The translations under genes were made by a program, and so were the position numbers. A DNA stretch of 64,000 nucleotides from an uncultured delta proteobacterium. GTDB lineage: Bacteria > Desulfobacterota > Binatia > UBA9968. The stretch is taken from the NCBI GenBank assembly GCA_963816145.1, contig CAWFJP010000002.1, forward strand, positions 128,001 through 192,000, read 5' to 3'. This document shows positions 4,270-62,063 of the stretch, in pieces; position 1 is the first letter of the stretch, and each line of letters opens with the position of its first letter. The notes beneath the pieces are model-generated. The model saw only the letters and a list, made by a program, of their open reading frames with translations, ran no database searches and was not told the origin of the DNA.

Positions 4270-4510
4270 GATAACGAGATAGAGTCTTGAGATAGAGACA
4301 GAGATTTCCGATCACTGGCTTTTGTCTATCGCGAGTTTCTATGAGTCTTTTTTTTGCAGCCGCGCAAATGAAAGAGCGAGGTGTCGAGGCCTCTCAGGAA
4401 TTGCCCTTACGGCTGATTCGACACGGATCTGCAAACCGATGGGCATTGCGGAGATGTACCGATTTGACTGAGTTTCGGAATCTCAAATCTCTGTCTCTCG
4501 TCTCTATCTC
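4268..4510. repeat. Inverted micro-repeat arms (GAGAYA-type units) between convergent genes
   Basis: gagatagagacagagatttccg (about 4289-4310) pairs with cggaatctcaaatctctgtctctcgtctctatctc (4476-4510). Confidence 0.7.
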
Positions 4511-4511
4511 C

Positions 4512-5270
4512 TCAATGCATATTCATGCCGCCGTCAACGACGATGGACTGGCCGGTCATGAAGTCGCTGTCGTCGGAGGCGAGGAAGATCACCGTGCCGA
4601 CCAGATCCTGCGGGTATTGATCCCGTTGAAGGGCGCGGCGTTTCCTGCGGTCGGCGAGTTGTTCTGGACTCGTCACGCCTTCTTGGTTTGGGCTTGAGAT
4701 CGTCAGGCCGGGCATAATGGAGTTGACGCAGATATTGTCGCCGCCGACTTCGCGCGCGAGGGCGCGAGTGAAGCTCAAGACGCCGCCTTTGGAAGATACA
4801 TAATGCAGGAAAAACGGCGTGCCGGTCTGGGTCGTGCCCGACGAGATGTTGATAATCTTGCCTTTTTGCTGCTGCTTCATCGCCGGGTACACCGCTTTGA
4901 CGCAGAGAAACAGTCCTTTGACATTGACCGCCATGACGCGGTCCCATTCGTCGGTGTCGATTTCCATAAAGGCTTTTTTCTTGAGTGCAGAGTATAGACC
5001 GGCGTTGTTCACTAGGATGTCGATGCGGCCATAAGCTTTAAGCGCTGCCGCTGCCATCGCTTGGGTTTTCTCCGCCGAGGTCACGTCGACCGCCACAGCG
5101 ATCGCTTCGCCGCCGGCCGCTTTGATATCAGCAGCCACTTTTTGCGCTTCGGCCTCTTGAATATCGGCGACCACGACCTTCGCACCTTCTTTAGCGAGGC
5201 CGTGGGCGTAAGCTTTGCCGATACCGACCCCGCCGCCGGTGACGATGGCTACCTTATTTTGTAATCGCAT
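4512..5270 (-). CDS. Short-chain dehydrogenase/reductase
   Basis: TGGGVGIG, NNAG, YVSSK; ATG at 5270 preceded by AAGGAGG. Confidence 0.93.
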   Translation of the reverse strand: MRLQNKVAIVTGGGVGIGKAYAHGLAKEGAKVVVADIQEAEAQKVAADIKAAGGEAIAVAVDVTSAEKTQAMAAAALKAYGRIDILVNNAGLYSALKKKAFMEIDTDEWDRVMAVNVKGLFLCVKAVYPAMKQQQKGKIINISSGTTQTGTPFFLHYVSSKGGVLSFTRALAREVGGDNICVNSIMPGLTISSPNQEGVTSPEQLADRRKRRALQRDQYPQDLVGTVIFLASDDSDFMTGQSIVVDGGMNMH

Positions 5271-5300
5271 GGTGGCCTCCTTAAAATTCATTAAGAAATG

Positions 5301-5370
5301 TTTCACGCAAAGGCGCAAAGTTCGGAATCTAATCTTCTAACCTTAGCGTCTTCGCGCCTTTGCGAGAGAT
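5301..5370. repeat. Palindromic element with 9-nt units (CGCAAAGG-type)
   Basis: tttcacgcaaaggcgcaaag ... cttagcgtcttcgcgcctttgcgagag; related arms at about 46317-46348 and 58626-58735. Confidence 0.7.
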
Positions 5371-5383
5371 ACTCTTCTATTCT

Positions 5384-6424
5384 TCAAATCTTCAGCCGGT
5401 AAAAATCTACTGGATTGTCGTGCAATATCGCTTTTTTGTTTTCTTCGCTGATGTCGTCGCGTTCGAGAAATTCCGGGATATCGCGTTTGAACATGTCGGG
5501 CAGCCGCTCGTGCGGGTAGTCGGACGGCCACATGAGGCATTTTGGATTGAACTGCTGGATGACGAAAGGCAGGGCTTTTTCTTCGACTTCGCAGCTCGTC
5601 CAGATCTGGCCGTTGCGGATCAGCTCGCTCGGTTTTTGCTTCAACAGCGGCGCTTGGACGCGGTAGGGTTTTTCCATTTCCTCGTCCATGCGGTCCATCA
5701 TGTAGGGCAGCCAGCCGCAGCCGGCTTCGAGGAACGCTACACGCAATTTGGGAAAACGCACGAAGACGCCCTCGAAAACCATGTTGGTAAATTGGATCAG
5801 AATCGCAAACGGATGTTCGAGGGTATGCACTTGCAGAAACTTGTTAAAAAAATCGAAGCCCATGCCGCGGCTGGGCGCGCCGTGGATGGTCAGCGGCATA
5901 TCTAAGCGTTCCGCCGCTTCATAAATTGGATCGAAGTCGCTGTGGCCGTAGCCTTTATGCAGCGAGGTCACCGCCGGCAGTAAACCGGCGACATGGCCCA
6001 GTGATTTGGCGCGCTCCAGTTCCTTTGCTGCCTCGAGAGGTTCATGCACGGGTAGCAGCGCCACGCCTTTGAGACGGGGACTTACGTTGATGAAGCGATC
6101 GGCGAGCCAGGAGTTGTAGGCGCGCGCGAGCACACAGGACCACTCAGGGTTCTGCACCAAGCCCAAACCTAATCCGCCGGTCGGATAAAGCACGGTGGTG
6201 TGGACGCCCAACTCGTCGAGAAACTGCAACCAGCGCGTTGCCGGGGTTTCCGGATCTTTGCCGGGAACACCCGTACCGCGATTCCAGCCGTCTAGCGATG
6301 GAAAATAAGCGTAGGTTTCAAAGCGCGGCGCGCTGCTGTAGCGGCCGCCGAGATAGTCGTGCAGCTCTCGGTCTTTCTCCAAGACATGACCGTCAGCGTC
6401 GATGATCGGATAAGCGAGGTTCAT
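5384..6424 (-). CDS. Amidohydrolase_2 family (metal-dependent decarboxylase/hydratase-like)
   Basis: IIDADGH, AYNSWL, LEAGCGW, SDYPH. Confidence 0.9.
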   Translation of the reverse strand: MNLAYPIIDADGHVLEKDRELHDYLGGRYSSAPRFETYAYFPSLDGWNRGTGVPGKDPETPATRWLQFLDELGVHTTVLYPTGGLGLGLVQNPEWSCVLARAYNSWLADRFINVSPRLKGVALLPVHEPLEAAKELERAKSLGHVAGLLPAVTSLHKGYGHSDFDPIYEAAERLDMPLTIHGAPSRGMGFDFFNKFLQVHTLEHPFAILIQFTNMVFEGVFVRFPKLRVAFLEAGCGWLPYMMDRMDEEMEKPYRVQAPLLKQKPSELIRNGQIWTSCEVEEKALPFVIQQFNPKCLMWPSDYPHERLPDMFKRDIPEFLERDDISEENKKAILHDNPVDFYRLKI

Positions 6425-6478
6425 AAAATCTCCGTTGCAAAAGTTCCAGTCGTTCCAAAGGTTCCAATCGTAGCTGCA

Positions 6479-7237
6479 TTACAGAAAGGATATACCACCG
6501 TCGACGTTGACGGTTTGCCCAGTCATAAAATCGCTCAGCGGCGAGGCTAGGAACAGCATGGCTCCGACGACGTCTTGCGGGACTTGGACGCGCTTGAGCG
6601 CGCGCAGGCCGGCGGAAGATTCGCGCAGGCGAACGGTTTCTTGGCTAGGATTCTCTTCCGAGAGCGTATTGCCAGGGGCCAAGCAGTTGACGTTGATGTT
6701 ATCGCCGCCGACTTCGCGCGCCAAGGTGCGCGTGAAACCGATGGTGGCGGTTTTTGACGTGACATAATGAATACGCCCCGGACTGCCGGCAAACACCGTG
6801 CCCGAGGCGATATTGATGATCTTGCCGGAATGCTGCACGCGCATGGCCGGCAGCACGGCGCGGCAGCAGAAAAATAAGCCGCGCAGATTCACCGCCATGA
6901 GCTTATCCCATTCCGCCGGATCGATGGTTTCAATCCTGCCGCGGTTCATCGGCACGACGGAAAATACCGCAGCGTTGTTGATGAGAACATCGATGCGGCC
7001 GAAACGATCGAGAACCTGCGCGGCCATTTTCTTGGTCGCGTCTTCATTCGACACATCGACTTGGACGGGAAGCGCTTGGGCGCCGATTTCGTTGGCCGCC
7101 GCTTGGGCGCCTGAGTTGTCGATGTCGGCGATGACGACGCGCGCGCCGGCATCGCCGAAGCCTTTACAGTAGGCTTTGCCGATGCCATGGGCGCCGCCGG
7201 TGACGATAACGACTTTGTCTTTCAGTCCTGCGATCAT
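6479..7237 (-). CDS. Short-chain dehydrogenase/reductase
   Basis: TGGAHGIG, NNAA, YVTSK; start placed at MIAGLKDK (7237). Confidence 0.92.
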   Translation of the reverse strand: MIAGLKDKVVIVTGGAHGIGKAYCKGFGDAGARVVIADIDNSGAQAAANEIGAQALPVQVDVSNEDATKKMAAQVLDRFGRIDVLINNAAVFSVVPMNRGRIETIDPAEWDKLMAVNLRGLFFCCRAVLPAMRVQHSGKIINIASGTVFAGSPGRIHYVTSKTATIGFTRTLAREVGGDNINVNCLAPGNTLSEENPSQETVRLRESSAGLRALKRVQVPQDVVGAMLFLASPLSDFMTGQTVNVDGGISFL

Positions 7238-49532: not shown

Positions 49533-50070
49533 GGCAAAAAAACGCAAAGGTACGGCCCTATTGGCGGTGATGGACGAGAACTGTTCGAGCTGTGCGGGAT
49601 CGCCGATCTGTGAAGCCCACTGTCCGGTGGACGAATGCATCAATCTACTCTATGAGGAGCTGCCTGGCGGCGGTTTGAAGCCCTATCGGGTTTTTGTCGA
49701 CAACGACAAATGCATCGGTTGCCAGATGTGTTTCAGCGACGATCTCACCAAAGTCCAGCAGCATAAAGAAACCGGCGAGATATTCTATGAATACGCCAAC
49801 AAGTTCTACGACGCCAACCGCAAGCCCGTCGATGCCGATGCCGTGCCTAAACGTATTCAACTGCAGCTGATCGGCACGGAGTCGGAAGACCGTCTGGACA
49901 AGAAAATCTGCCCTTGGGACGCCATCAAGATGTATGAGTTCGATGAGGGTTTGGTGCAGTCGGAGTATTTTTACGATCAGAGCAAACTCAAGCAGGTCAA
50001 CGGTATGTACGTCATCGACGCCGAGGAAAAGGCCCGCTTGGAAGACAAACAGAGCGACCTCTACGATTAA
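49525..50070 (+). CDS. 4Fe-4S dicluster ferredoxin with large insertion
   Basis: CSSCAGSPICEAHCP and CIGCQMC...ICPWDAI. Confidence 0.85.
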   Translation: MAEAKKRKGTALLAVMDENCSSCAGSPICEAHCPVDECINLLYEELPGGGLKPYRVFVDNDKCIGCQMCFSDDLTKVQQHKETGEIFYEYANKFYDANRKPVDADAVPKRIQLQLIGTESEDRLDKKICPWDAIKMYEFDEGLVQSEYFYDQSKLKQVNGMYVIDAEEKARLEDKQSDLYD

Positions 50071-50096
50071 GCCGGCAACCTAGGGAGCCAACACAT

Positions 50097-51470
50097 ATGG
50101 CGGGCAAAATCGAAATCATGGAAACAGTCTTGCGTGACGCGCACCAGTGTTTGGTCGCGACGCGCATGCCGACCGAAGACATGCTGCCGATCGCAGCGGC
50201 GCTCGACGATGTCGGCTACTGGTCGCTGGAGACCTGGGGCGGCGCGACTTTCGATGCGACGCTGCGCTATCTGAAAGAATGCCCCTGGGAGCGCTTGCGC
50301 AAACTGCGCGCGGCCATGCCCAAGACCCGCTTTCAGATGCTTTTGCGCGGGCAAAATGTGGTCGGCTATAAAAACTACCCCGACGATATCGTCCAAGCCT
50401 TCGTGCAACGCGCTGCCGCCAACGGCATCGACGTGTTTCGCATCTTCGACGCCATGAACGATGTGCGCAACATGAAGACCGCCATCGAAGCCGGTCTCAA
50501 GACCGGCAAACTGGTCGAAGGCGGGGTCTGTTACACCATCAGTCCCGTGCACTCGCCAGATTATTTCCTGCATGTGGCGGAAAAGCTCGCCGATATGGGT
50601 GTGCAGATTATCTGCCTCAAAGACATGGGCGGATTGCTGGCACCTTACGCGGCTTATGAGATCATCAAGAAGATCAAGTCGCGCATCGCGCTGCCGCTGC
50701 ATTTGCATTCACACTGCACCGCCGGTTTGGCGCAGATGACTTACATGATGGCCATCGAGGCGGGCGCGGATATTCTCGATACGGCGATTTCGCCGTTCTC
50801 CCAAGGCACGTCCCAGCCGGCCACCGAGCAGATCGTCGCGGCGCTCATGGGCACGCCGCACGACACCGGACTGGATCTCGCCAAGCTCGCCAAGATCGCC
50901 GAGTATTTTTACCGCATCCGGCCGAATTACCGTGAGTTCGAGAGTCCGGTGAACAATCAAATCAAACCCGATGTTCTGATCTCGCAGATCCCCGGCGGCA
51001 TGCTCTCCAACCTGGTCGCGCAACTGCGCCAGCAAAAGGCCGAGGACAAGCTCGAAGCGGTGCTCGCCGAGATGCCCCATGTGCGCAAAGATTTAGGTTA
51101 TCCGCCGTTGGTGACGCCGACCAGTCAAATGGTTGGAGCCCAAGCTGCGCTCAACGTCATGACCGGCAAACGCTACTCCGTGGTCGCCATGGAGACCAGA
51201 AACTATGTCATGGGGCTATACGGCGAAGCGCCGGGCAAGATCGCTGAAGAGATCAAAGAAAAGGTGCTCGGCAAAAAAGAGCCGATAACCTGCCGTCCAG
51301 CGGATTTGCTGAAACCCGGGCTGGAAAAAGCCCGCAGCGAAGCCGGCAGCATGGCCAAGAGCGAAGAGGACGTGCTCACCTACGCGCTGTTTCCGGATAT
51401 CGCGAAGGATTACTTTCTGCACCGAGACAGTGGTGAGGGAATACAGCAGGCAGCTGGCCTAAGCCAATAG
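50097..51470 (+). CDS. Pyruvate/oxaloacetate carboxyltransferase (PycB/OadA/transcarboxylase 5S-like), no biotin domain
   Basis: LRDAHQ, WGGATFD, QMLLRG, LKDM, HSH, PGGM.SNL, PLVTPTSQ; no AMKM motif. Confidence 0.92.
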   Translation: MAGKIEIMETVLRDAHQCLVATRMPTEDMLPIAAALDDVGYWSLETWGGATFDATLRYLKECPWERLRKLRAAMPKTRFQMLLRGQNVVGYKNYPDDIVQAFVQRAAANGIDVFRIFDAMNDVRNMKTAIEAGLKTGKLVEGGVCYTISPVHSPDYFLHVAEKLADMGVQIICLKDMGGLLAPYAAYEIIKKIKSRIALPLHLHSHCTAGLAQMTYMMAIEAGADILDTAISPFSQGTSQPATEQIVAALMGTPHDTGLDLAKLAKIAEYFYRIRPNYREFESPVNNQIKPDVLISQIPGGMLSNLVAQLRQQKAEDKLEAVLAEMPHVRKDLGYPPLVTPTSQMVGAQAALNVMTGKRYSVVAMETRNYVMGLYGEAPGKIAEEIKEKVLGKKEPITCRPADLLKPGLEKARSEAGSMAKSEEDVLTYALFPDIAKDYFLHRDSGEGIQQAAGLSQ

Positions 51471-51528
51471 CAAATGCTTCTTGTCGGGAGTATTGCCATC
51501 CCGTCGCCTGCAATGGGCAGTTACCTGC

Positions 51529-52428
51529 CTAGATTATCTTATTTAGCGGATATTCGATAATTCCCACGGCTCCGGCTTCGATCAACTTCGGTATTAGATC
51601 GCGCACTTTGGTTTCTTCAAGCACGCTTTCGATGGAATACCACTTAACGCCTTTCAAATTGGGCGAAGGGTGGAGCGTCGCTACCGTAGGTGCGGTGATA
51701 CTGGGAATCAACTCAACAACTTTCTCCAGGCTGCCTTCGGGAACGTTGAGTTTGATGCCGACTTTGTTTTCGGCCGAGAGCGCGCCCAGTAAGAGCATTT
51801 TGATCTGCTCGATCTTGGCTCGCTTCCACGGGTCCTGCCAGGCGGTTTTATTAGCGATCAGTTGCGGGCAGGACTCCATGAGTTCATGGATGATGTGCAG
51901 GCCGGCGGCGCGGATGGTGGTGCCGGTCTCGGTAACTTCGACGATCGCATCGACGAGTCCCTCGGCGGCTTTCGCTTCGGTGGCGCCCCAGGAAAATTCC
52001 ACTTCCACGGGAATGTTCCGCTCGGCAAAATAGCGCTTGGTGAAGTTCACCATCTCGGTGGAAATCCGCTTGCCCTTGAGGTCTTCGATTTTCTTGACTG
52101 GCGATTCGCGCGGCACCGCCACGACCCAGCGGGTCGGGCGAAAGCTGGTTTTTGAATAAACCATCTCGCAGACGACTTGGATATCGGAGTTGTTTTCGAT
52201 CGTCCAGTCTTTGCCGGTGATCGCGACATCGAGGGTGCCCATCTCGACGTAGCGCGACATTTCTTGCGGGCGCGCCAGGCTGCAACGGATCTCCGCGTCG
52301 TCGATCGTCGGAAAGTAGCTTCTGCTGGACGATGAAATCTTCCAACCGGATTTTTTGAAGAGCTCGATGGTCATGCCTTCGAGGCTGCCTTTGGGGATGC
52401 CCAACTTGAGTTCTTTCTCGCCAGCCAT
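51529..52428 (-). CDS. hisG: ATP phosphoribosyltransferase (long form)
   Basis: [28 protein letters not shown]-terminal regulatory domain. Confidence 0.96.
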
Positions 52429-52443
52429 ATGAAAGCCTTGTTC

Positions 52444-52827
52444 TTACTTTTTGTAAACTTCCTTGGGATCGAAGACGCGTTCGCCAATGACTTTCCAGTC
52501 GGCGCCCGCGCGTTGGCGGAAAAAACAGCTCTTGTAACCCTCGTGGCAGGCGGCGCCGCCGACCTGATGGACTTGAATCAAGATGGTGTCGGTATCGCAG
52601 TCGATAAAGGCGTCTTTAACTTCTTGAAAGTTGCCGGATTCCTCGCCCTTGAACCATGGGCCTTTGCGCGAACGGCTGTAGTAATGGGCTTTGCCGGTTT
52701 CCTGCGTTTTCTGCCACGCTTCCTCGTTCATGTAGGCGACCATCAGCACTTCGCGGCTTTCATGGTCCTGGACGATCACCGGCACCAAGCCATTGCCCTT
52801 GGCAAAATCGATTTTTACTTCCGACAT
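52444..52827 (-). CDS. hisI: Phosphoribosyl-AMP cyclohydrolase
   Basis: [33 protein letters not shown]. Confidence 0.96.
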
Positions 52828-52899
52828 GGGAATTTTCTCCGAAACTGTTTAGCTAACATAGATGGGGGGGGGCTTCAACCAAAAGACGGAAAGGTGGAA

Positions 52900-52990
52900 A
52901 GGCAATAGGCATTAGGCATTAGGCACTAGAAAGACTCGCTCGACGGTTTCCGGTTCTTGCCATTGCCTATTGCCTAGTGCCTCATGCCTT
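52900..52990. repeat. Inverted heptamer-repeat hairpin (AGGCAWT/TGCCT)
   Basis: aggcaataggcattaggcattaggcactag ... ttgccattgcctattgcctagtgcctcatgcct. Confidence 0.85.
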
Positions 52991-53036
52991 CCCATAGATT
53001 GACTGCCCATCGTGCTGGGTTGTAAGATTGCCAGTA

Positions 53037-53846
53037 ATGTCGGAATTGATCGTAGTTTATGTAACCGTGGGGTCGGGCGAGGAGGCGGACCGCATGGCTC
53101 AAGCTTTGGTCGGCGAGCAGTTGGCTGCTTGCGTCAACCGGGTGCGCTCGATTCAGTCGGTGTACCGCTGGCAGGGCAAGGTCGAGCAGAACGACGAAGA
53201 ACTGTTGATCATCAAGACTCGCCGGCAGCTTTTCCCGGCTTTAGAAAAGCGTGTTAAAGAGCTGCACAGCTATTCGATTCCCGAGATTATTGGATTGCCG
53301 ATCATCGAGGGCAGCGCGGACTACTTAACTTGGCTGCGCGAGCAGGCCTTGGCCAAGCCGCCGCAGGAGGAAAATATCCGCACGGTTAGAGAGGTCTCTG
53401 CCGGCGGAGTGATCTACCGGCGCAGCGGCGAGTTGGCCGAAGTCGCACTCATTCATGTGCGCAACCGTTGGGGTTTGCCCAAGGGGCATGTCGAGGAAGG
53501 CGAGCGGGTGGAGGAAACGGCGCTGCGCGAGGTGCGCGAAGAGACCGGTCTTGAAGGCAAACTGGTGCGTAAGCTGGGCGACATTCGCTACTCCTACCGC
53601 GATAAATCCAAAGAGGGCGAGCCGATCCGGATTTACAAGCGGGTGCATTTCTATCTAATGCGTTATGTGCGCGGCGATGTGCGCGATCACGATCATGAGT
53701 CTGACGATGCCCGCTGGTTCGCCATTGAGCAGGCGATGAAGCAGCTCAAATTCGCCACCGAACGCAAGATGGTGTACCGCGCCATGACCATGCTGACGGC
53801 GCGCCCGGCGGCGCCGCAAATCCCGGCTGCGGAAGGCGGCGCCTAA
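53037..53846 (+). CDS. CutA-NUDIX hydrolase fusion
   Basis: CutA (LAACVN, SVYRWQG, HSYSIPEI) joined in frame to a Nudix box (PKGHVEEGE..EETALREVREETG). Confidence 0.88.
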   Translation: MSELIVVYVTVGSGEEADRMAQALVGEQLAACVNRVRSIQSVYRWQGKVEQNDEELLIIKTRRQLFPALEKRVKELHSYSIPEIIGLPIIEGSADYLTWLREQALAKPPQEENIRTVREVSAGGVIYRRSGELAEVALIHVRNRWGLPKGHVEEGERVEETALREVREETGLEGKLVRKLGDIRYSYRDKSKEGEPIRIYKRVHFYLMRYVRGDVRDHDHESDDARWFAIEQAMKQLKFATERKMVYRAMTMLTARPAAPQIPAAEGGA

Positions 53847-53928
53847 GCCGCAGCAAAAAATCTGTCAAACTTGCGGTTTTCATGTTATGGGCTAGCTAAC
53901 GACGTAGCCTCTTCGAGAATTTCTTACG

Positions 53929-55302
53929 ATGGCTGGTGAATCGACTGGTGTGACGTTTTCCGTGCCTTATGAAATGGCGGTGGTGCGGCCGTTGCGGCAA
54001 ACCACCGAACAGGAGCGGCAAACCGCTCTGGCCGAAGCCCACTACAACACCGAGCTCATTTCGCAGGAGCTCATTTATATCGACTTATCGACCGATAGCG
54101 GCGTGAGCGCGCGCAGCACCGCACAACTGGCGGTATCGGCGGCGGCGAATTCCGTCGAACCCGGCATGGGCCTGGCTTCGGAAGGAAGCGCTGCTCATGC
54201 CCGGCTCGCCGCAGAGGTTCAGCGATATTTCGGCTTCGATTACTTTGTGCCGACGACCCAGGGGCGCTCGGCGGAACGGATCTGGGTCAAGATCAATGTT
54301 AAACCCGGCAGCATCGTCGCCGGCAACATGCTGTTCCCGTCGACGCGCACGCATATCGAGATGAGCGGAGCGCAGATCACCGACGTGATCGGCGACGACG
54401 CTCACGATTTTCTTTCCGACGAGCCGTTCAAAGGGAATATCGATATTGCGAAGCTTGAAAGCCTGATCCAGAAAAAGGGCGCCGGGCAGATCAGCTGCAT
54501 TTATGTCGAACTGAGCGTCAATTCCTGCGGCGGCCATCCGGTGTCGCTGGCGAATCTCAGAGCCGTCCGGGAGATCGCGTCGGCGCACAAGATTCCGCTC
54601 TTTCTCGACGCCTGCCGAATCCTTGAGAACAGCATTCTCATAAAAGAGCGAGAAGCGGAGTTCCGGCAGCGGACGCTCGCAGAGATCGTGCGGGAAACCT
54701 GCGCCCTGGCTGATGGCGGAACCATGAGCGCGCTCAAAGATTTTCTCGTCGGCGCCGGCGGTTTTGTTTTTACCCGCGACCGCGCGAGTTACCAGAAGGC
54801 GGCGATGCAAAGTTTTCTTGACGGCGTCCAGCTTCCCGCCGGCGATATGGAATCGATCGCAGTGGCGCTGCCGGATATTTTTGCCAGCGACGCGCACGCG
54901 AAACAACGGGTAGAACAGGTGAAATATCTTTGGGGCAAACTCGCTGACGCCTTGCCGGTCCTGCGCCCGGCGGGCGGGCACGCCGTGTTCATCGATCTCA
55001 AGATGTTCTTCGCCGGGAACTCGCCGCCAGCCTTCGGCGCCGAAGCCCTGGCCGCTTATGTTTATCTAAAGAGCGGTATTCGCCTCACCAAGGGGCCGCC
55101 TTTGGCGCCAAGCCAAGCGGCCCGCGGCGCTGAGCTCTTGCGCCTCGCCGTGCCGGCGCGGAAATATTTGAACGGCCATATGGATGACGTCGCCAACGCG
55201 CTGGGCGACGCGTACGCGCACCGGCATCAGATCCAAGGACTAAAAAAACTTGACGATCCCGCGCGGTCGAAATACGATCCGGCGCATTTCGTCAATTTAT
55301 GA
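53929..55302 (+). CDS. Divergent tyrosine phenol-lyase / tryptophanase-family PLP enzyme
   Basis: YIDLSTDSG, QGRSAE, FKGNID, GG.PVS, DACR..EN, TMSALKD, GGHAVF, RLAVP.R.Y. Confidence 0.88.
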   Translation: MAGESTGVTFSVPYEMAVVRPLRQTTEQERQTALAEAHYNTELISQELIYIDLSTDSGVSARSTAQLAVSAAANSVEPGMGLASEGSAAHARLAAEVQRYFGFDYFVPTTQGRSAERIWVKINVKPGSIVAGNMLFPSTRTHIEMSGAQITDVIGDDAHDFLSDEPFKGNIDIAKLESLIQKKGAGQISCIYVELSVNSCGGHPVSLANLRAVREIASAHKIPLFLDACRILENSILIKEREAEFRQRTLAEIVRETCALADGGTMSALKDFLVGAGGFVFTRDRASYQKAAMQSFLDGVQLPAGDMESIAVALPDIFASDAHAKQRVEQVKYLWGKLADALPVLRPAGGHAVFIDLKMFFAGNSPPAFGAEALAAYVYLKSGIRLTKGPPLAPSQAARGAELLRLAVPARKYLNGHMDDVANALGDAYAHRHQIQGLKKLDDPARSKYDPAHFVNL

Positions 55303-57080
55303 ATCACCCTGATCTAGCCGCTACCGGCCGTCATGTCGGCCAAATCTTTTTCCAACGGGCCGCCGAGTTGGGCGACCGGACCTTTATCAAGCTGCAAAAA
55401 GGCGAGTGTTTCGAAGAGATCTCGTGGCGCGCGTTTGCCGCCATGGTGAGTCACGCCCTGCTCGGGTTATGCGGGCTCGGCATTTTGCCCGGTGATACGG
55501 TCGCAATCATCGGGGAAAATAGCTTGGCGTGGCTTGCCGCCGACATGGCGACGCTCGCCGGCGGATTTACCAACGTGGTCATCTCGCCCAGTCTTTCCGA
55601 TGTCATGTTCGCCAAGGTGCTCGGTCATGCCGGCTGCCGAGCCGCGTTTGTTCAAGATGCGATTACTGCCGGTCGCCTGCTCAATCTTCAGGGGCAGTTG
55701 CCGGCGTTGCAGCAGTTGATCGTCCTGGACGACAGCGGTGCGTCTGTGCCCAATGCGCTCAACTTCAATCAGCTTGCTGCAATGGGTGCTGCCGCCGGCG
55801 GCGGTCGATCCGCCACGCTTGTCGAAGCGGTGCATGGCGGCGATTTGGCGACGATCATGTATACCTCCGGTTCGACCGGTGAGCCCAAGGGAGTCATGCG
55901 CACCCAAGACAACCTGATCGCCAATATAACCAACGGCGGCCCCCTTACCGTCAGCGGCCCGGAGGAATTGACGGTTAACGTGCTCAGTTTAAATCATCTG
56001 TTCGGCCGCTTCGGCTTTCTCAAAAGCGCCGTGACCGGCCGAACCACGGCGCTCGTCGAGGCGGCGGAGACACGAGTAGACTTACCCGTGATCGAACAGC
56101 TGGCGCCGACGGCGTTGGCCGTAGTGCCGCGGGTGATGGAAGGGATTTGGGCTAGTCTGCTGGCTCAGGACGGCGCGCAACAATTGTGGGACGAGTTGGA
56201 AAATCTTGACGCCAAGATGTCTGCTGGCGCGGTCAGCGATCGCGCGACCAGTCACGTTGAGGAATTGAAAGGCCAACTCAAAGTGATCGTTCGCCGCGCC
56301 CTCGGCGGACGGATCCGGTATATCGCCTATGCCGGCGCGGCCATGCCGCCGCGGATCATGCGATTTTTCGAGTTGATCGGCATCCCGCTGATTGGCTCCT
56401 ACGGCTCCACCGAGTGCGGCGGGGTGACTCTCTGCGGCATCGGCGAGAACCGTCCGGGCAACCTGGGCAAGCCGTTCGCCAATGTGCAAATTAGCATCGC
56501 CGCCGACGGTGAGATCCTTGTGCGTGGTCCCACCGTATCGCCGGGCTATTTCAAAAATCCCGAAGCCACTCGCGAGGCGTTCGACGAAGAAGGCTGGTAT
56601 CACACCGGCGATTTAGGCCGCCTCGAAGCCGATGGATCGCTGCGTATCACCGGCCGGAAGAAAGATGTCTTCAACTGCGCGGATGGCTCGAACATCTATC
56701 CCGGCTTCATCGAACTACAGCTAGAAAACGAGCCCTTTATCAGCCAAGCGGTGTTGCTGGGCGATCGCCGGCCGTTTATCGCGGCGTTGATTTTTCCCGA
56801 CCGCCAAAGGATTACCGAATCGCTCGGTCGTGATATAGCATTTTTGTCGGACGCGGAAATCACCGCGGCATTGTGGCCGCAGATCGAGCGCGTCAATGGC
56901 CGCCTCGAAGCGCACGAACGGATTCGTCAGATCGTCGTTATGCCCAGCGGGTTTTCCGCCGAGGTCAGGAGTATCAACCATTTTCAAAAGATCAAAGTGA
57001 ATCGCGAACAGGTCGCGGCGCGCTTTCGGCAACAGATCGACGCTATTTATGCGACGGCGCCGGCGGGAGGACAACATTGA
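55299..57080 (+). CDS. AMP-dependent long-chain acyl-CoA ligase-like enzyme
   Basis: YTSGSTGEPKG, YGSTE, GWYHTGD, ITGRKKD; ATGA-coupled to the upstream gene. Confidence 0.92.
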   Translation: MNHPDLAATGRHVGQIFFQRAAELGDRTFIKLQKGECFEEISWRAFAAMVSHALLGLCGLGILPGDTVAIIGENSLAWLAADMATLAGGFTNVVISPSLSDVMFAKVLGHAGCRAAFVQDAITAGRLLNLQGQLPALQQLIVLDDSGASVPNALNFNQLAAMGAAAGGGRSATLVEAVHGGDLATIMYTSGSTGEPKGVMRTQDNLIANITNGGPLTVSGPEELTVNVLSLNHLFGRFGFLKSAVTGRTTALVEAAETRVDLPVIEQLAPTALAVVPRVMEGIWASLLAQDGAQQLWDELENLDAKMSAGAVSDRATSHVEELKGQLKVIVRRALGGRIRYIAYAGAAMPPRIMRFFELIGIPLIGSYGSTECGGVTLCGIGENRPGNLGKPFANVQISIAADGEILVRGPTVSPGYFKNPEATREAFDEEGWYHTGDLGRLEADGSLRITGRKKDVFNCADGSNIYPGFIELQLENEPFISQAVLLGDRRPFIAALIFPDRQRITESLGRDIAFLSDAEITAALWPQIERVNGRLEAHERIRQIVVMPSGFSAEVRSINHFQKIKVNREQVAARFRQQIDAIYATAPAGGQH

Positions 57081-57820
57081 GTCAGGTAGCTTTGATTACG
57101 GGCGGGGGCGGCGGCATCGGCGGCGCGGTGGCCCAGCGCATGGCCGCGGCGGGAATTATCGTCGTCATCGCCGATTACGATGGCGGCGCGGCGGAGCGAG
57201 TTAAGGGCGAGGTCGCCGCGGCCGGCGGCACAGCCGATGCTTTGGCGATCGACGTCACGGTGGCGCGCGAAGTCAAAGCGGTGGTCACCGATGTCGCCAA
57301 GCGCTATGGGCGCATCGATATCTTGGCAAACATCGCCGGCGGCAGCCGTTACACGAAACGAGTCGAAGAGTTTACCTGGGCCCAGTGGAAAGAGGTGATC
57401 GACGCCAATTTGAAAGGGACGTTTCTCATGTGCCGCGAAGTGGCGCCGATCATGCAGAAACAGAAGAGCGGACGAATCATCAACACGGCATCGAATTACG
57501 GCGTCACCGGATCGGCATTGCGCACGCCCTACGCCGCAGCCAAGGCCGGCATCATTACTTTCACCAAGTCTCTGGCCTTGGAGCTGGCGCCGGATCTCGT
57601 GCTCGCCAACACCGTCGCGCCGGGACCGACGGACACGCCGCGGGTGATGGAAAAGGAGTCCCCCGAAGCGCGCAAACAGCGCTGGTGGTCGCAGATCCCG
57701 CTCGGGCGCACGGCATTGCCGGAAGATTTGGCCGAGATGTATTATTTTCTCACCACGCCGGAGAGCGCAGCGATCACCGGACAAACCTTTCACGTCAACG
57801 GCGGGGTGGTGATGCCATGA
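57077..57820 (+). CDS. Short-chain dehydrogenase/reductase
   Basis: TTG start (GGAGG SD) overlapping the ligase stop; TGGGGGIG, YAAAK. Confidence 0.92.
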   Translation: MSQVALITGGGGGIGGAVAQRMAAAGIIVVIADYDGGAAERVKGEVAAAGGTADALAIDVTVAREVKAVVTDVAKRYGRIDILANIAGGSRYTKRVEEFTWAQWKEVIDANLKGTFLMCREVAPIMQKQKSGRIINTASNYGVTGSALRTPYAAAKAGIITFTKSLALELAPDLVLANTVAPGPTDTPRVMEKESPEARKQRWWSQIPLGRTALPEDLAEMYYFLTTPESAAITGQTFHVNGGVVMP

Positions 57821-58566
57821 GACTCAAGGATAAAGTTGCGGTAGTGACCGGCGCGGCGCAGGGCATCGGCCGGGCGACGGCGCTGATGATGGGGCGCGAA
57901 GGCGCGAAATTGGTGGTTGCGGATCTCCAGGGCGAGAAAGCGCAGTCGGTGGCCAATGAACTCGCGGCGCTGGGTGCCGAGTCGCTTGGCGTCGCCGTCG
58001 ATGTGGCGAGCGAAACGTCGGTCAAACAAATGGCCAAAGCGACCTTCGAGCGCTTTGGCCGCGTTGACATCCTCGCCAACATTGCGGGAATTTATTTTCC
58101 GAAAAAATCGGTGGTCGACCTGTCGGAAGAGGACTGGGACCGCACCATCAACATCAATCTCGGCAGCAATTTTCTCTGCTGCCGCGAATTCGTCCCAGCC
58201 ATGCGCAAGCAAAAAAGCGGGCGCATTATTAGCGTCGCCTCCGGCATCGGCCACTACGGTATGCGCCAGTTCTCCCATTACGCGGCCTCCAAGGCCGCCA
58301 TTATGGGGTTCGTCAAATCTCTTGCCCGTGAAGTCGGTCCGGATGGCATCACCGTCAACGCCATCTGCCCGGGCTCGGCCAACACCTCCATGCCGCGCCA
58401 GCATCGCTCCGAGGAAGAAGTCTTGGAGCGTCTGCAGGCCACGCCACTGCCGCATGTCCTCGAGCCCGAAGACATCGCCGGTTCCATCACGTTCCTCGCC
58501 AGCGACGCCGCGAAGTTCATCACCGGGCAGTCGTATAACATCAATAGCGGGACCTATATGTTTTGA
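57817..58566 (+). CDS. Short-chain dehydrogenase/reductase
   Basis: ATGA overlap; TGAAQGIG, YAASK. Confidence 0.92.
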   Translation: MRLKDKVAVVTGAAQGIGRATALMMGREGAKLVVADLQGEKAQSVANELAALGAESLGVAVDVASETSVKQMAKATFERFGRVDILANIAGIYFPKKSVVDLSEEDWDRTININLGSNFLCCREFVPAMRKQKSGRIISVASGIGHYGMRQFSHYAASKAAIMGFVKSLAREVGPDGITVNAICPGSANTSMPRQHRSEEEVLERLQATPLPHVLEPEDIAGSITFLASDAAKFITGQSYNINSGTYMF

Positions 58567-58577
58567 GCACGGACACG

Positions 58578-59296
58578 CACCACGAAGGACCAATACCGCG
58601 TCGTTACAACCGAAACTCGGAATATCTCTCGCAAAGACGCGAAGGCCGCAAAGGTCGGAATATAAGGGTGAAAATCATTCGTAAGAATGATTATCTTTCC
58701 GTTTCGAACTTGGCGACTTGGCGCCTTTGCGAGAGGAAATCTTGCTTCCGAGTGGTTCCAGCTTTCAGATCATTTGCGCAGGCCGCGCAAATTGTGAGCT
58801 TGGGTAATACAAGGGCCACAAAGTATGGGCGCGATTCGTCGCGCCCACGGATCGCAGCCCGAGATTGATTAACCGCAAAGCACGAAAAGCGATGGGGAGC
58901 TGTCATTTCGACCGAAGGGAGAAATCTTTCTGAGATCCATCTCTCTTCTTTCGGCATGACGGCTGCGCTGAATTTGTCATTTTGAGCGCAGCGAGAAATC
59001 TCTTCGACTTCCAGCCGCGGGACGGCTACGGCACTGAACCACGAAGTGTTCATGAGCTTACGCTCGTCTACAGAGTATGAAATTGCCGGCACCCCTCCAC
59101 AGGTTCTTTCATTGACCCGTCATGCAGGCGAGGCCGGCAGCCAAGGGAGGGAGGGGATGGATACCCGCTTTCGCGGGTATGATGGAGCTAGGCAATCTAG
59201 TGGTTCCGCAGATCATCTCCGGACGCGTATTCTCGACGGAGAGATTCTGGATTCTCTATCGGTAATAACCTAACCGCCTAACGTAAGGCGGTTAGG
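58578..59296. repeat. Cluster of stacked REP-like palindromic elements
   Basis: cgcaaag/ctttgcg arms (58626-58735), 37-bp repeat copy 2 (58902-58938), gtcattttgagcgcagcgagaaatct, cgtcatgcaggcg...gatacccgctttcgcgggtatga, and cctaaccgcct/aggcggttagg (59269-59296). Confidence 0.72.
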
Positions 59297-59434
59297 CTCA
59301 TGCCTCGGTCAAAAATTTCCAAACTGCGAATCGGTTTTACTGTCCAAGAACGGGAATTGTGCTACCGTCACGGTATCAACTGCCGTTATCTGTCACGACC
59401 GTAAGCGAAACAGCGGACGCAAAGGGGGATCGTT

Positions 59435-59986
59435 ATGGCTGCAAAAACAAACGAATTTGGTTTCGTCGAGTGCGCTGATCTGATCAACGGGCAGAAATAC
59501 GGTGCGGCGTTGAAAATATTTCAGCAAGCGGTGGCGAATTTCCTCGATGCCAAGACGACGCCCAAGCGCAGCGAGATCGCCCGGCAGTTGTTTCAGATCG
59601 GTTCAACCCTGGAGGAAACTTTGAAGCATGCCTTCGGCGATAAATGGGAGTCGCAGATTCCCCAATTCGCCGATGACAACAAGCTGCTCACCTGTTCTTT
59701 CTGCGGCAAGAATCAAAACGAAGTGGGCAAGCTAATCGCCGGCCCGTCGGTGCATATCTGCAACGAGTGTGTGCGCACCTGCGACGAAATCCTCACCAAG
59801 GAAAATATCGAGGAGACGGAAACCAAGTTGAAAGCCGCCGCCGGTGTGGCGGAAGAGCGGCTGTGCGGCATCTGCATGGAAGCGCGCGAGACCGACGAGC
59901 TGATCTTTTTGCCGCACGCGGCGTACATGTGCGCCAGCTGTTTGGAAGATATTCAACTCGTGCGCGACAAGCGCGAAGGGGCGTGA
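59435..59986 (+). CDS. Small protein with ClpX-type C4 zinc finger plus a second C4 site
   Basis: CSFCGK...V.KLIAGP.V.ICNECV..C, then CGIC...MCASC; no AAA domain. Confidence 0.82.
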
Positions 59987-60066
59987 AAGGCCCAATATGA
60001 TTGCACCGGAGATCTGCGATGCAGATTGAAGTCTACGTGTAACTTCCAATTCTATCCCGCCGACAG

Positions 60067-60905
60067 ATGAGCCAAGTCCTCATTCAGCAATATCTCAACC
60101 AGCTCCAGGACCTGAAAAAGGTCTCCGGTACGCATCGCGAGTCGGTGGTCCGCGAGGCTTTCAAGGATCTGCTCAAGGGTTGGGCACGCTCCCGCGACCT
60201 GATCTTCGTTCCCGAATACGAGATCGCCACTCCCGCCAAAGACCGGCGTTACGTTGACGGCGCGCTGGTGAATCAGCTGCGCGTGCCGTTCGGCTATTGG
60301 GAGGCCAAGGAGGAAAAGGACGACCTCGACGCCGAGATCGACTACAAGTTGCGCCGCGGCTATCCGCAGGACAACATTATTTTCGAGGACTCCACCCGAG
60401 CGGTTTTGGTTCAGGAGAAAGAGGAGGTCTACCGTTGCGCCGTCGATGAAGTCAAAGACCTGGAAAAGTTACTCAATCTGTTCTTCGACTACGAGCGCAC
60501 CGAGATCACCGAGTTCCGCAAGGCGGTCGAGCAGTTCAAGAATGACCTGCCGGTGGTGTTGGAAGCGCTGCGTTCGATGATCGAGCGCGCGCACCAGCGC
60601 GAGCCGGAGTTTAGAAAAGCGGCGGAAGAGTTTCTCAAGCACGCCCAGGAAGCGATCAATCCGAGCCTGACCGAAGCGGACGTGCGCGAGATGTTGATCC
60701 AGCACATCCTCACCGAGGACGTTTTCGCCGCCGTCTTCCCCGGCACGCCATTCCACCAGGATAACAACGTCGCCCGCGAGCTGTACAAGCTGGAGGCGAA
60801 TTTCTTCAAAGGCGACACCAAATTCCAGACGCTCAAAGGCATGGCGCCCTACTACGCCGCCATCCGCTCCGCCGCCGCGCAGATCGGCACGCACCACGAG
60901 AAGCA
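60067..60905 (+). pseudogene. Truncated type IIG/ISP-like restriction-modification enzyme (N-terminal nuclease region only)
   Basis: VDG...YWEAK PD-(D/E)xK-like motif, GYPQDNIIFED, EMLIQHILTE; plausible coding stops after HHEK, no methyltransferase motifs follow, and the ORF runs on into a palindrome. Confidence 0.78.
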
Positions 60906-60939
60906 CCATCTTCGCGCGCGCTGCAATGCCAAAGAAATC

Positions 60940-60990
60940 CTGGATTCCGGCCCCGGATCAGGTCCGGGGCAGGCTCTACGCCGGAATGAC
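60940..60990. repeat. REP-like element (TGGATTCC...GGAATGAC type)
   Basis: ctggattccggccccggatcaggtccggggcaggctctacgccggaatgac; related to the element near 59120-59183. Confidence 0.65.
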
Positions 60991-61181
60991 GACAGTGAAG
61001 AGTTGACTTCTAGTCGACGAATTCAGGAGCCCTGCGCTTTAAGCCCAGGGTCGTTCAGTTTGCCGCACCGAGGTTTTAGCACTGCGCAGATTCGCCGGAG
61101 TTCCAACAAAATTTCCGCCGCCCTCTTGAAGATTGCTGTCATGCGGGAAATATTCAAGGCTAATCAATTTTCGGAGGCATC

Positions 61182-62063
61182 ATGGGTAATTCACAACCCG
61201 GTATTCTGGCGCCGTGCCCGAAGCTGGCGCGCTATCTGAGTTTTTCGCTTGAGGCGGGGGCGAAGCCTGGACGGGCGCTCAAGGCGTTGGTCGAACTTGC
61301 CGATGGCGATTCTGTCGTGGTCGGTTTTGGTCAGCCTTTGGTGCGTGTTCTCGGCGGGGAAATCCCCGGGCTCCGGGTATTCCCAACGCAATTCGGTTCG
61401 GGCTTGATTCTGCCGTCATCTTCGGCGGCGTTGTGGTGCTGGCTGCGCGGCGATGATCGCGGCAAGCTGCTCCACTCCGGGCGGAAAATCATCGCCGCGG
61501 TTTCGAGCGCTTATGCGCTCGACTCGGTGATCGACGGTTTTCAGTTTGACAATGGCCGCGATCTTACCGGATTTGTCGATGGCACCGAGAATCCCAAAGG
61601 CAAGAAAGCATCTGTCGCGGCGATCGTGCGCGGCGCAGGGGCTGGGCTCGACGGATCGAGCTTCGTTGCGGTGCAGCAGTGGATTCACGATTTTCAGCGT
61701 TTCGAGGCGATGTCGGCCAAAGACCAGGACAACGCCGTCGGCCGGCGCCGCAGCGATAATAAAGAACTGTCCGGCGCGCCGCGCTCGGCGCATGTCAAAC
61801 GCACCGCGCAGGAAAGCTTTTCTCCAGAGGCTTTTATTTTGCGGCGGTCGATGCCGTGGACCGATGGCGCCGCCGGCGGTTTGAACTTCGTCGCGTTCGG
61901 CAAATCGTTCGATGCTTTCGAAGCCCAGCTCAAGAGGATGGTTGGCGCCGACGACGGCATCACCGATGCGCTGTTCAAGTTCACCCGGCCGCTGACCGGC
62001 AGTTATTTCTGGTGCCCGCCCATGGCCAAGGGACGATTGGATTTGCGCGCCTTGGGTTTCTAG
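61182..62063 (+). CDS. Dye-decolorizing (DyP-type) peroxidase
   Basis: GFVDGTEN (GxxDG), proximal AHVKR, distal ILRRS, DALF.F. Confidence 0.93.
   Translation: MGNSQPGILAPCPKLARYLSFSLEAGAKPGRALKALVELADGDSVVVGFGQPLVRVLGGEIPGLRVFPTQFGSGLILPSSSAALWCWLRGDDRGKLLHSGRKIIAAVSSAYALDSVIDGFQFDNGRDLTGFVDGTENPKGKKASVAAIVRGAGAGLDGSSFVAVQQWIHDFQRFEAMSAKDQDNAVGRRRSDNKELSGAPRSAHVKRTAQESFSPEAFILRRSMPWTDGAAGGLNFVAFGKSFDAFEAQLKRMVGADDGITDALFKFTRPLTGSYFWCPPMAKGRLDLRALGF

Follow-up and report, generated by a model that had tools for sequence, protein, structure and literature searches.

A 64,000-nucleotide stretch of the genome of an uncultured delta proteobacterium from the class Binatia (contig CAWFJP010000002.1 of assembly GCA_963816145.1, positions 128,001 to 192,000; hereafter the window) contains a gene for a pyridoxal 5'-phosphate (PLP) enzyme of the tyrosine phenol-lyase (TPL)/tryptophanase fold, referred to as TPLL, which is translationally coupled to a downstream gene for an adenylate-forming ligase. 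We propose that the two genes constitute a module, in which TPLL would catalyze an elimination or replacement reaction on a non-aromatic amino acid in concert with the ligase, and we assign this interpretation a probability of about 0.5. That TPLL and the ligase form a functional unit is likely; the class of the PLP reaction (alpha,beta-elimination or beta-replacement) is a tentative assignment at somewhat less than even odds, drawn from the protein sequence. Two genes for short-chain dehydrogenases/reductases (SDRs), SDR1 and SDR2, follow the ligase gene in the window and represent a separable module.

Active-site residues of TPLL

The best match of TPLL among solved structures is the TPL of Citrobacter freundii (1tpl; phmmer E 1.2e-88), with residues 13-454 of TPLL aligned to residues 7-453. 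We compared active-site residues using alignments to this protein and to P0141, a metagenomic control protein that passes the NCBI equivalog model for TPL (733 versus 720.7 bits). The two alignments agree that TPLL retains, in TPL numbering, S51 (TDSG), Q98 and R100 (QGR), F123, N185, D214, R217, K257 (SALKD), H343, and R404, which bears out a preliminary description of the window that had listed the PLP- and carboxylate-binding residues among these. Given that the Schiff-base lysine, the aspartate that contacts the pyridine nitrogen, the ligands of the phosphate and O3' groups, and the carboxylate-binding arginine are all kept, TPLL should be able to bind an L-alpha-amino acid as an external aldimine, and the parts for binding PLP and such a substrate and for removing the alpha-proton are, judging by these residues, retained.

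On the substrate side, F36 is replaced by E42, T124 by P137, K256 by L269, R381 by K388 (LTKG), and F448/F449 by Y449/D450. A four-residue deletion takes out PSYG of the EGMPSYGG loop, the loop past K388 is shorter by a further 7-8 residues, and a seven-residue insertion (VEPGMGL) stands ahead of the position of Tyr71, which aligns to S84; the new EPGMGLA loop comprises TPLL residues 77-83. The losses named in the preliminary description (GLASE, FP, K256 to L, the EGxxxYGG loop, TKGP, and KYD) are all correct by both alignments. Its reading of GDEAY71 as GLASE needs refinement: Tyr71 is indeed gone, the insertion accompanies the change, and the residue aligned to Tyr71 varies across the family. 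Where the TPL pocket has Phe, Met, Thr, and Arg, that of TPLL has Glu, Lys, Arg, Lys, Tyr, and Asp/Glu (E42, K388, R446, K448, Y449, and D/E450). As also stated earlier, TPLL appears to be without the residues that we take to be required for expelling phenol or indole, and because both the general-acid tyrosine and the aromatic pocket for Cbeta-Cgamma cleavage are gone, it is very probably not a lyase of tyrosine or tryptophan.

Conservation, phylogeny, and predicted structure of the TPLL family

A word-indexed protein search retrieved at least 120 relatives of TPLL with 62-97% identity, nearly all of which are 455-460 amino acids (aa) long; conservation was scored over 121 sequences, i.e., the window protein and the 120 listed relatives. 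The PLP and carboxylate residues K270, D227, R405, R113/Q111, N198, and R230 (TPLL numbering) are each present in 121/121 sequences. Similarly, P137 and R446 occur in all 121, L269 in 118, Y449 in 117, and K388 in 114, the inserted residues E-P-G-M-G-L-A in 116-121 each, and the substitutions are likewise fixed in the family alignment A1. The position equivalent to Tyr71 is occupied by Ala (63 sequences), Ser (21), Val (13), Pro (13), or Thr (7). With the substitutions fixed under purifying selection in 121 relatives, neither chance nor decay accounts for them, and a lost catalytic residue beside a strongly constrained new loop reads as the mark of a changed function rather than a dying one. 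The expectation that the substitutions are common to the homologues and define a clade is thus supported by both this conservation and the phylogeny below, and the alternative of decay fails.

TPLL matches PF01212, Beta_elim_lyase (163.3 versus 27 bits), and among NCBIfam models passes NF009709 (PRK13238, a 'tryptophanase' subfamily; 360.9 versus 285 bits), while scoring below the equivalog models for TPL (TIGR02618, 358.8 versus 720.7 bits) and for tryptophanase (TIGR02617, 266.7 versus 825.8 bits; NF053783, 292.4 versus 750 bits). In an exhaustive search of 1.84 billion cluster representatives, of which 150 were listed, the TPLL family collapses to one full-length representative (P0125, 59% identity) and fragments; the next full-length proteins among the matches listed are P0132 (47%) and two at 42% and 41% identity.

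A quick maximum-likelihood tree (LG+G4, with support from the Shimodaira-Hasegawa-like approximate likelihood ratio test, SH-aLRT, only) was built from 77 rows, comprising 71 of the 150 listed representatives (425-485 aa) and six family members. It splits into a canonical clade of 53 rows and a second clade of 24 rows (SH-aLRT 94 each). Tyr71 is found in 40 of the 53 canonical rows, with Phe in 6 more, and Lys or Arg at position 256 in 51 of them; both features are absent from all 24 rows of the second clade. TPLL lies within the latter, in a 12-row subclade (SH-aLRT 99) with P0125, P0132, and P0137-P0140, which share the loop insertion and both deletions. TPLL is a member of a deep-branching clade of TPL-like proteins that lacks Tyr71 and Lys256, and the rewiring is therefore older and wider than the lineage of the window.

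An AlphaFold2 model computed from 21 sequences (mean predicted local distance difference test score, pLDDT, 77.6; predicted template modeling score 0.79) was compared to solved structures with Foldseek, giving template modeling (TM) scores of 0.79-0.80 for TPL, 0.74-0.78 for the tryptophanase TnaA, and 0.65 for the SH domain 9cen discussed below. TPLL is by its predicted structure a true fold-type I PLP protein of the TPL/TnaA architecture.

Searches for further relatives returned only generic 'TPL/tryptophanase' clusters in the ESM Atlas and, in three plasmid tblastn searches with outgroup proteins, only canonical TPL or tryptophanase at no more than 39% identity. All 80 loci found in a metagenome scan with the outgroup alignment A2 belong to the same TPLL family, with the same synteny and 51-85% identity to the window protein. 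In the literature on TPL-like and tryptophanase-like homologues and on Binatia, with subscription journals outside the search, we found no paper on the TPLL family and no biochemistry on the Tyr71-less clade beyond the distant SH domains of polyketide synthases (PKSs). Six of the listed proteins (P0127, P0128, P0130, P0131, P0133, and P0134; ~900-930 aa) consist of two tandem TPL-like domains with 33-37% identity to TPLL.

Linkage of TPLL to the ligase and to the SDR genes

We collected 54 related loci from species-representative genomes. The ligase gene follows TPLL in 51 of the 52 loci with at least 600 nucleotides (nt) of downstream sequence, and a CutA-Nudix fusion gene precedes TPLL in 53 of the 54. 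Of the 37 loci with at least 2500 nt of room, 30 have SDR1 and SDR2 behind the ligase and seven lack them; SDR2 always accompanies SDR1. Among metagenome contigs, which draw partly on the same data, the ligase follows TPLL in 72/80, and six of the eight contigs without it end within ~400 nt of the TPLL stop codon. The overlap or near-abutment of the TPLL stop and the ligase start is kept over 53-84% protein identity. In one contig (L115), two tandem 598-aa ligase genes (3212-5008 and 5109-6905) stand behind TPLL, each 58% identical to the window ligase and to one another.

Gene content across 61 genomes of the bacterial family follows the same pattern: 34 genomes have both TPLL and the ligase, 26 have neither, and one carries a deletion remnant spanning both. 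Thresholds alone gave 33 genomes with TPLL and 32 with the ligase, and inspection of the five discordant genomes revealed that TPLL and the ligase are both present in four of them, interrupted by a contig end or broken in two pieces. In the remnant (genome G529, of the same genus as the window; locus L186, G529:C537, 5819-7350), a single deletion joins TPLL codons 1-30 to ligase codons 114-593, flanked by CutA-Nudix before and SDR1/SDR2 after, which looks like the pair caught being lost. In another locus (L185, G530:C3, 3285-8881), the alignments of TPLL, the ligase, and SDR2 are each broken into two overlapping parts, owing to either assembly-error frameshifts or three consecutive pseudogenes.

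The SDR genes show another pattern. Three genomes of the same genus (G409, G206, and G340) lack the pair, and in these CutA-Nudix is directly followed by SDR1-SDR2 with 73-93% identity. Conversely, four of five genomes with the pair and without adjacent SDRs have no SDR1 orthologue anywhere at E<=1e-50, and the fifth has only paralogues of 45-49% identity. In one subgroup, mscL, a gene for a mechanosensitive channel of 146 aa, is located between the ligase and SDR1 (L038, 10118-10558; L058, 10330-10770; L061, 10318-10758), and two further loci (L031 and L163) have a ligase-SDR1 gap of the same size, ~830 nt. The seven SDR-less loci share no common next open reading frame (ORF) downstream of the ligase, as judged by size and position. 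Given that the SDRs occur without the pair and the pair without the SDRs, the unit that is kept or lost together is TPLL plus the ligase, and the CutA-Nudix/SDR/SDR operon is probably older, with the pair set into it. Of the single four-gene pathway envisaged in the preliminary description, the coupling of the ligase to TPLL thus remains, whereas the SDRs proved to be separable.

Distribution and inheritance

The genome of the window (31 contigs, 7.8 Mb) has a single TPLL copy. Among 201 sampled genomes of the phylum, no other one has a homologue with more than 43% identity, and in a sample of 301 genomes of the class (E<=1e-100) it was detected in 17 of 25 genomes of the window's own family and in 0 of 275 from 19 other families. 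The TPLL family was found in one bacterial family only, in records mostly labelled Candidatus Binatia. The source organisms of the 54 loci are labelled Candidatus Binatia in 22 cases and delta-proteobacterial in 24, the rest carrying scattered labels, which probably reflect differences in labelling or binning since all 54 loci share the same neighbourhood.

Identity to the window tracks that of HisG for both TPLL (rho 0.84) and the ligase (rho 0.83), and the TPLL and ligase identities co-vary (rho 0.84, n=40), with the caveat that the genomes are non-independent kin, so that p-values overstate these correlations. The pattern fits vertical descent with losses, and the block, including the housekeeping gene hisG, is syntenic in one bacterial family. 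Because the whole block is vertically inherited and syntenic, conserved gene order alone says little about shared function.

The weaker homologues in the phylum of the window were dead ends: two of them neighbour trp operons, another is a 910-aa protein with a tandem double domain, a fourth lies inside a 3516-aa open frame, and a fifth is canonical-like. In two small genomes of this phylum (1.7-1.8 Mb), trpE and trpG are directly preceded by a gene for a beta-eliminating lyase of canonical appearance (L098, 7074-8459; L099, 7705-9087), and in L098 trpD, trpC, and trpF come next; this arrangement suggests a role in tryptophan synthesis or salvage rather than degradation. In L101 (G012:C53, 7565-10297), a tandem-domain TPL-like gene comes after genes for a PLP decarboxylase and a deacetylase.

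Ligase, SDRs, and the surrounding locus

ORF coordinates and junction letters agree with the earlier description of four consecutive plus-strand genes at 53929-58566 (Table 1). Each start overlaps the preceding stop by 4 nt, through ATGA at the TPLL/ligase and SDR1/SDR2 junctions and TTGA at the ligase/SDR1 junction.

Table 1. Genes of the TPLL locus, in window coordinates.
Gene product	Length (aa)	Position	Strand	Domain matches and remarks
CutA1-NUDIX fusion	272	53028..53846	+	Pfam CutA1 3.7e-36, NUDIX 9.3e-24
TPLL, TPL/tryptophanase-fold PLP enzyme, non-canonical subfamily	457	53929..55302	+	Pfam Beta_elim_lyase 1e-47
ACSL/CAR-A-domain-type adenylate-forming ligase	593	55299..57080	+	Pfam AMP-binding 3.6e-58, AMP-binding_C_3 4.8e-17
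SDR1, classical SDR	247	57077..57820	+	Pfam adh_short_C2 1.1e-58; TTG start
SDR2, classical SDR	249	57817..58566	+	Pfam adh_short_C2 1.1e-64

The best NCBIfam match of the ligase is FadD11 (NF038343; 199.4 versus 950 bits), and its nearest solved chains are the A domains of carboxylic acid reductases (CARs; E ~1e-29). The core adenylation motifs are legible and intact in the translation. SDR1 and SDR2 are paralogues of one another with 38-40% identity (cross-hits 38-43%) and have generic FabG-like NCBIfam matches; against NF009466 (cut-off 222 bits), SDR2 scores 225.5 and SDR1 219.7 bits. As many SDR models score alike, no specific function follows. Both proteins have an Asp after strand beta2 (VVIADYD and LVVADLQ), a feature of NAD-dependent dehydrogenases rather than NADPH-dependent reductases, which suggests that the two SDRs are NAD-dependent and fits a catabolic role better than reductive biosynthesis.

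An 82-nt spacer separates the CutA1-NUDIX gene from TPLL, and farther upstream of the former lie an unassigned 159-aa ORF (orf159) and the divergent hisG gene. The CutA1-NUDIX gene is a conserved upstream neighbour, outside of the lyase-ligase pair; CutA1 and NUDIX hydrolase domains are joined in a single protein across the whole lineage, and the fusion gene invariably stands at the head of SDR1-SDR2. An Rfam scan of positions 50000-62000 gave zero matches at gathering level. A fluoride-riboswitch-like match at 52726-52806 (minus strand), inside orf159, scored 21.7 bits (E 0.024), below the gathering threshold of 34, and is most likely due to chance. Predicted promoter-like (4 observed versus 2.6 in shuffled sequence) and terminator-like sites (9 versus 9.4) were at shuffle level.

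Downstream of SDR2 (58567-59986), ~870 nt without a convincing ORF are followed by a gene for a 183-aa protein in which only a C4 zinc finger of the ClpX type can be recognised and an ATPase domain is missing; many relatives keep this gene downstream. Between 60067 and 62063, a 390-aa ORF with the 'coupler' domain of Type ISP restriction enzymes overlaps the start of a DyP-type peroxidase gene by 58 nt.

Occurrence in environmental samples

The stretch is widespread: fifteen soil or wetland metagenome runs from 14 studies, one of these runs perhaps being the source of the window, contain 76-87% of its sampled words; the RNA runs X21-X23 and the DNA run X24 contain next to none. Four soil metatranscriptome runs yielded contigs that match the window with 0-7 differences (96-100% identity). 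These RNA-library contigs cover parts of TPLL (54084-54262 and 54997-55231) and of the ligase gene (55830-56064), and bridge all three junctions (55014-55406, 57031-57217, and 57602-57944). TPLL is conserved and apparently expressed.

Proposed function and alternative explanations

We propose that TPLL is a working PLP enzyme, in which a polar or charged pocket and the invariant EPGMGLA loop would take the place of the aromatic pocket. Given that the pocket is now built from Glu, Lys, Arg, Lys, Tyr, and Asp/Glu, the substrate probably has a polar or charged distal group. It would be a non-aromatic amino acid with a beta-substituent that can leave without protonation of a carbon atom, such as a thiol, thioether, hydroxyl, ester, or phosphate; thioether amino acids of the cystathionine or lanthionine type and phospho- or acyl-serine are candidate classes, offered as a guess at the class rather than an identification. 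Tyr71 mutants of TPL keep side reactions with heteroatom leaving groups, and alpha,beta-elimination or beta-replacement of such groups is expected without Tyr71, matching both these mutants and the C-S lyase SH domains. PMC3870968 backs the side reactions of the mutants in part. For the ligase, the most likely role would be activation of a carboxylic acid, which the PLP reaction either yields or takes up as a co-substrate. Together, TPLL and the translationally coupled ligase would constitute a module inherited and lost as a unit, while the SDR genes, though presumably co-transcribed here, would stem from the older CutA-Nudix/SDR/SDR operon and not be obligatory partners.

Several points weigh against this proposal. 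For a simple beta-lyase, a ligase of the ACSL type is an unusual partner. TPLL has no characterised close relative, the closest outgroup protein of full length, P0132 (47% identity), is an orphan from one contig, and the confidence of the structural model over the new loop is only moderate (pLDDT ~52-72 at residues 61-90). One locus (L017) has an intact TPLL without the ligase, and two metagenome loci (L119 and L124) lack the ligase despite at least 5 kb of downstream sequence. The linkage comes from one vertical lineage, in which hisG is syntenic as well, and since one deletion removes both genes, adjacency and co-deletion could reflect position rather than function. The RNA-library contigs attest to presence, not to strand or level, could derive from DNA carry-over, and do not make one transcript of two genes; in addition, X16 and X17 appear to be duplicate deposits of one data set. 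Finally, the roles of Tyr71 as general acid and of Lys256, Arg381, Phe36, and Phe448 in specificity are those assigned to these residues in TPL. Of these, PMC3870968 states the parts on Tyr71 and Arg381, and supports the assignments only to that extent.

The original idea of one pathway for all four genes, in which the ligase would provide acyl-coenzyme A (acyl-CoA) or acyl-AMP, TPLL would join this to an amino acid in a Claisen condensation like that of alpha-oxoamine synthases, and the SDRs would turn the resulting ketone into an amino-alcohol or amino-lipid by reduction, appears unlikely. It has the attraction of matching the logic of sphingoid-base and capnine synthesis, and the 4-nt overlaps at all junctions, the adjacency of all four genes in 30/37 loci with room, and the RNA-library contigs bridging each junction speak for it, as do the new basic residues K388, R446, and K448, which could bind the phosphates of CoA. 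However, each half of the operon persists without the other, with four of the five SDR-less genomes devoid of an SDR1 orthologue, and one subgroup has mscL inserted between them. TPLL has no match to Aminotran_1_2 (PF00155) at E<=0.001, we know of no enzyme of the TPL fold that carries out Claisen chemistry, and the Asp after beta2 points to dehydrogenases rather than the reductases that such a pathway would employ. A related scenario, confined to the pair, would have the TPL scaffold repurposed for activated-acyl chemistry with the ligase, either forming a C-C bond between an amino acid and acyl-CoA or acyl-AMP (alpha-oxoamine-synthase chemistry reached by convergence, giving an amino-lipid head group) or passing sulfur from (thio)cysteine to the acyl-adenylate to yield a thioacid; we consider it rather improbable, and if it were true, the Tyr71-less clade (24 of 77 tree rows) would amount to a large part of PLP enzymology that is still unexplored. 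TPLL could also catalyze another type of reaction altogether, namely a retro-aldol cleavage akin to threonine aldolase, a racemisation, or a desulfuration of (thio)cysteine feeding the acyl-adenylate of the ligase to give a thioacid. PF01212 also includes threonine aldolases, an adenylating partner fits the capture of sulfur as in thiocarboxylate formation, and the nearest relative with a solved structure outside the canonical group is a thiocysteine lyase. We nevertheless doubt this option, given that the similarity of TPLL to TPL (E 1e-88) far exceeds that to the aldolase-type family (GntG, 22.6 bits) and that the block has no conserved gene for a sulfur carrier or rhodanese. Cysteines do occur near active-site motifs (C200 is invariant and C229 present in at least 90% of alignment A1), and were dropped as a sign of persulfide chemistry, since C229 is also found in canonical members such as P0192 ('DACR') and is therefore not diagnostic.

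Alternatively, TPLL and the ligase might be functionally unrelated neighbours held together only through vertical inheritance and single deletions. The synteny of hisG, orf159, and CutA-Nudix over the same genomes and the single deletion in G529, from TPLL codon 30 to ligase codon 114, are what this explanation would predict, and because the TPLL family is confined to one bacterial family (0/275 genomes in others), there is no independent re-association by which to test it. We regard mere neighbourhood as a poor bet, as the junction overlap or near-abutment is kept across divergent proteins, none of the 61 genomes has one intact gene and a clear absence of the other, both proteins evolve at the same, faster-than-housekeeping rate, and the ligase duplicated in tandem right behind TPLL in one contig. 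That TPLL is a divergent and otherwise ordinary TPL or tryptophanase is very improbable. While its relatives are named 'tyrosine phenol-lyase' or 'tryptophanase' in the source records, and both the NF009709 score and the TM of 0.79-0.80 to TPL agree with these names, its scores are half or less of every equivalog cut-off, and the positions of Tyr71, Thr124, Arg381, and Phe448/449 are replaced and fixed differently in 121 sequences. TPLL lies in the Tyr71-less clade, and an ordinary lyase activity would have to persist despite the loss of five residues conserved in the canonical clade. The proposed elimination or replacement on a non-aromatic amino acid, coupled to the ligase, thus remains our preferred interpretation.

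Comparison with known systems

Taken together, TPLL probably performs a reaction that is undescribed to date, as judged from its residues, within a narrow lineage. The proposal sets a testable two-gene unit apart from a misleading four-gene picture, and the phylogeny reveals a large sister clade in the TPL/TnaA family, without Tyr71 and Lys256. The findings also bear on annotation: metabolic reconstructions based on the public names would assign the formation of phenol or indole to these bacteria, which are abundant in soils and wetlands, whereas the sequence argues against it, and the public annotation of the TPLL relatives would be a systematic mis-annotation, corrected here.

TPL itself (EC 4.1.99.2; Citrobacter freundii and Erwinia herbicola; 1tpl, 2tpl, and 1c7g; TIGR02618) has the same fold and length as TPLL, 37-38% identity, and in common with it the PLP-binding and carboxylate residues S51, R100, F123, N185, D214, R217, K257, H343, and R404. 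In contrast, TPLL is without Tyr71, Thr124, Lys256, Arg381, Phe36, and Phe448/449, differs by a 7-residue insertion as well as 4- and 7-8-residue deletions, and is paired with a ligase; the TPL gene stands alone or with a tyrosine transporter or regulator. Similarly, TnaA (EC 4.1.99.1; 2oqx and 1ax4) shares the fold (30-33% identity) and the residues of PLP chemistry, whereas TPLL has neither a tyrosine equivalent to Tyr74 nor the Lys-Lys pair, and TnaA belongs to the other major clade.

Serine palmitoyltransferase and other alpha-oxoamine synthases act in pathways, such as those for sphingoid bases and capnine, that combine a PLP enzyme, acyl activation, and SDR reductases. This logic of the gene set is all that the TPLL locus has in common with them, given that their PLP family is a different one (Aminotran_1_2) and that the SDRs are separable here. 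The ligase resembles ACSL long-chain acyl-CoA synthetases, FadD11, and the A domains of CARs in its AMP-binding and AMP-binding_C_3 domains; however, the predicted ligase scores far below every equivalog cut-off and has neither a carrier nor a reductase domain.

The best precedent for the meaning of the loss of Tyr71 and Arg381 may be found in the SH (cysteine or thiocysteine lyase) domains of the leinamycin and guangnanmycin PKSs. According to PMC3870968, these PKS-embedded TPL-like domains also lack Tyr71 and Arg381, and the solved SH domain from the guangnanmycin system (9cen) is a thiocysteine lyase by its entry title and PMC8479088, cleaving a C-S rather than an aromatic C-C bond. TPLL is distant from 9cen (E 1.1e-20, 23% identity, TM 0.65), and while the SH domain forms part of a PKS module, where it works on a carrier-bound intermediate, TPLL is a stand-alone protein in a block resembling primary metabolism. 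Once defined, its reaction would give this textbook PLP fold either a new specificity or a new type of reaction.

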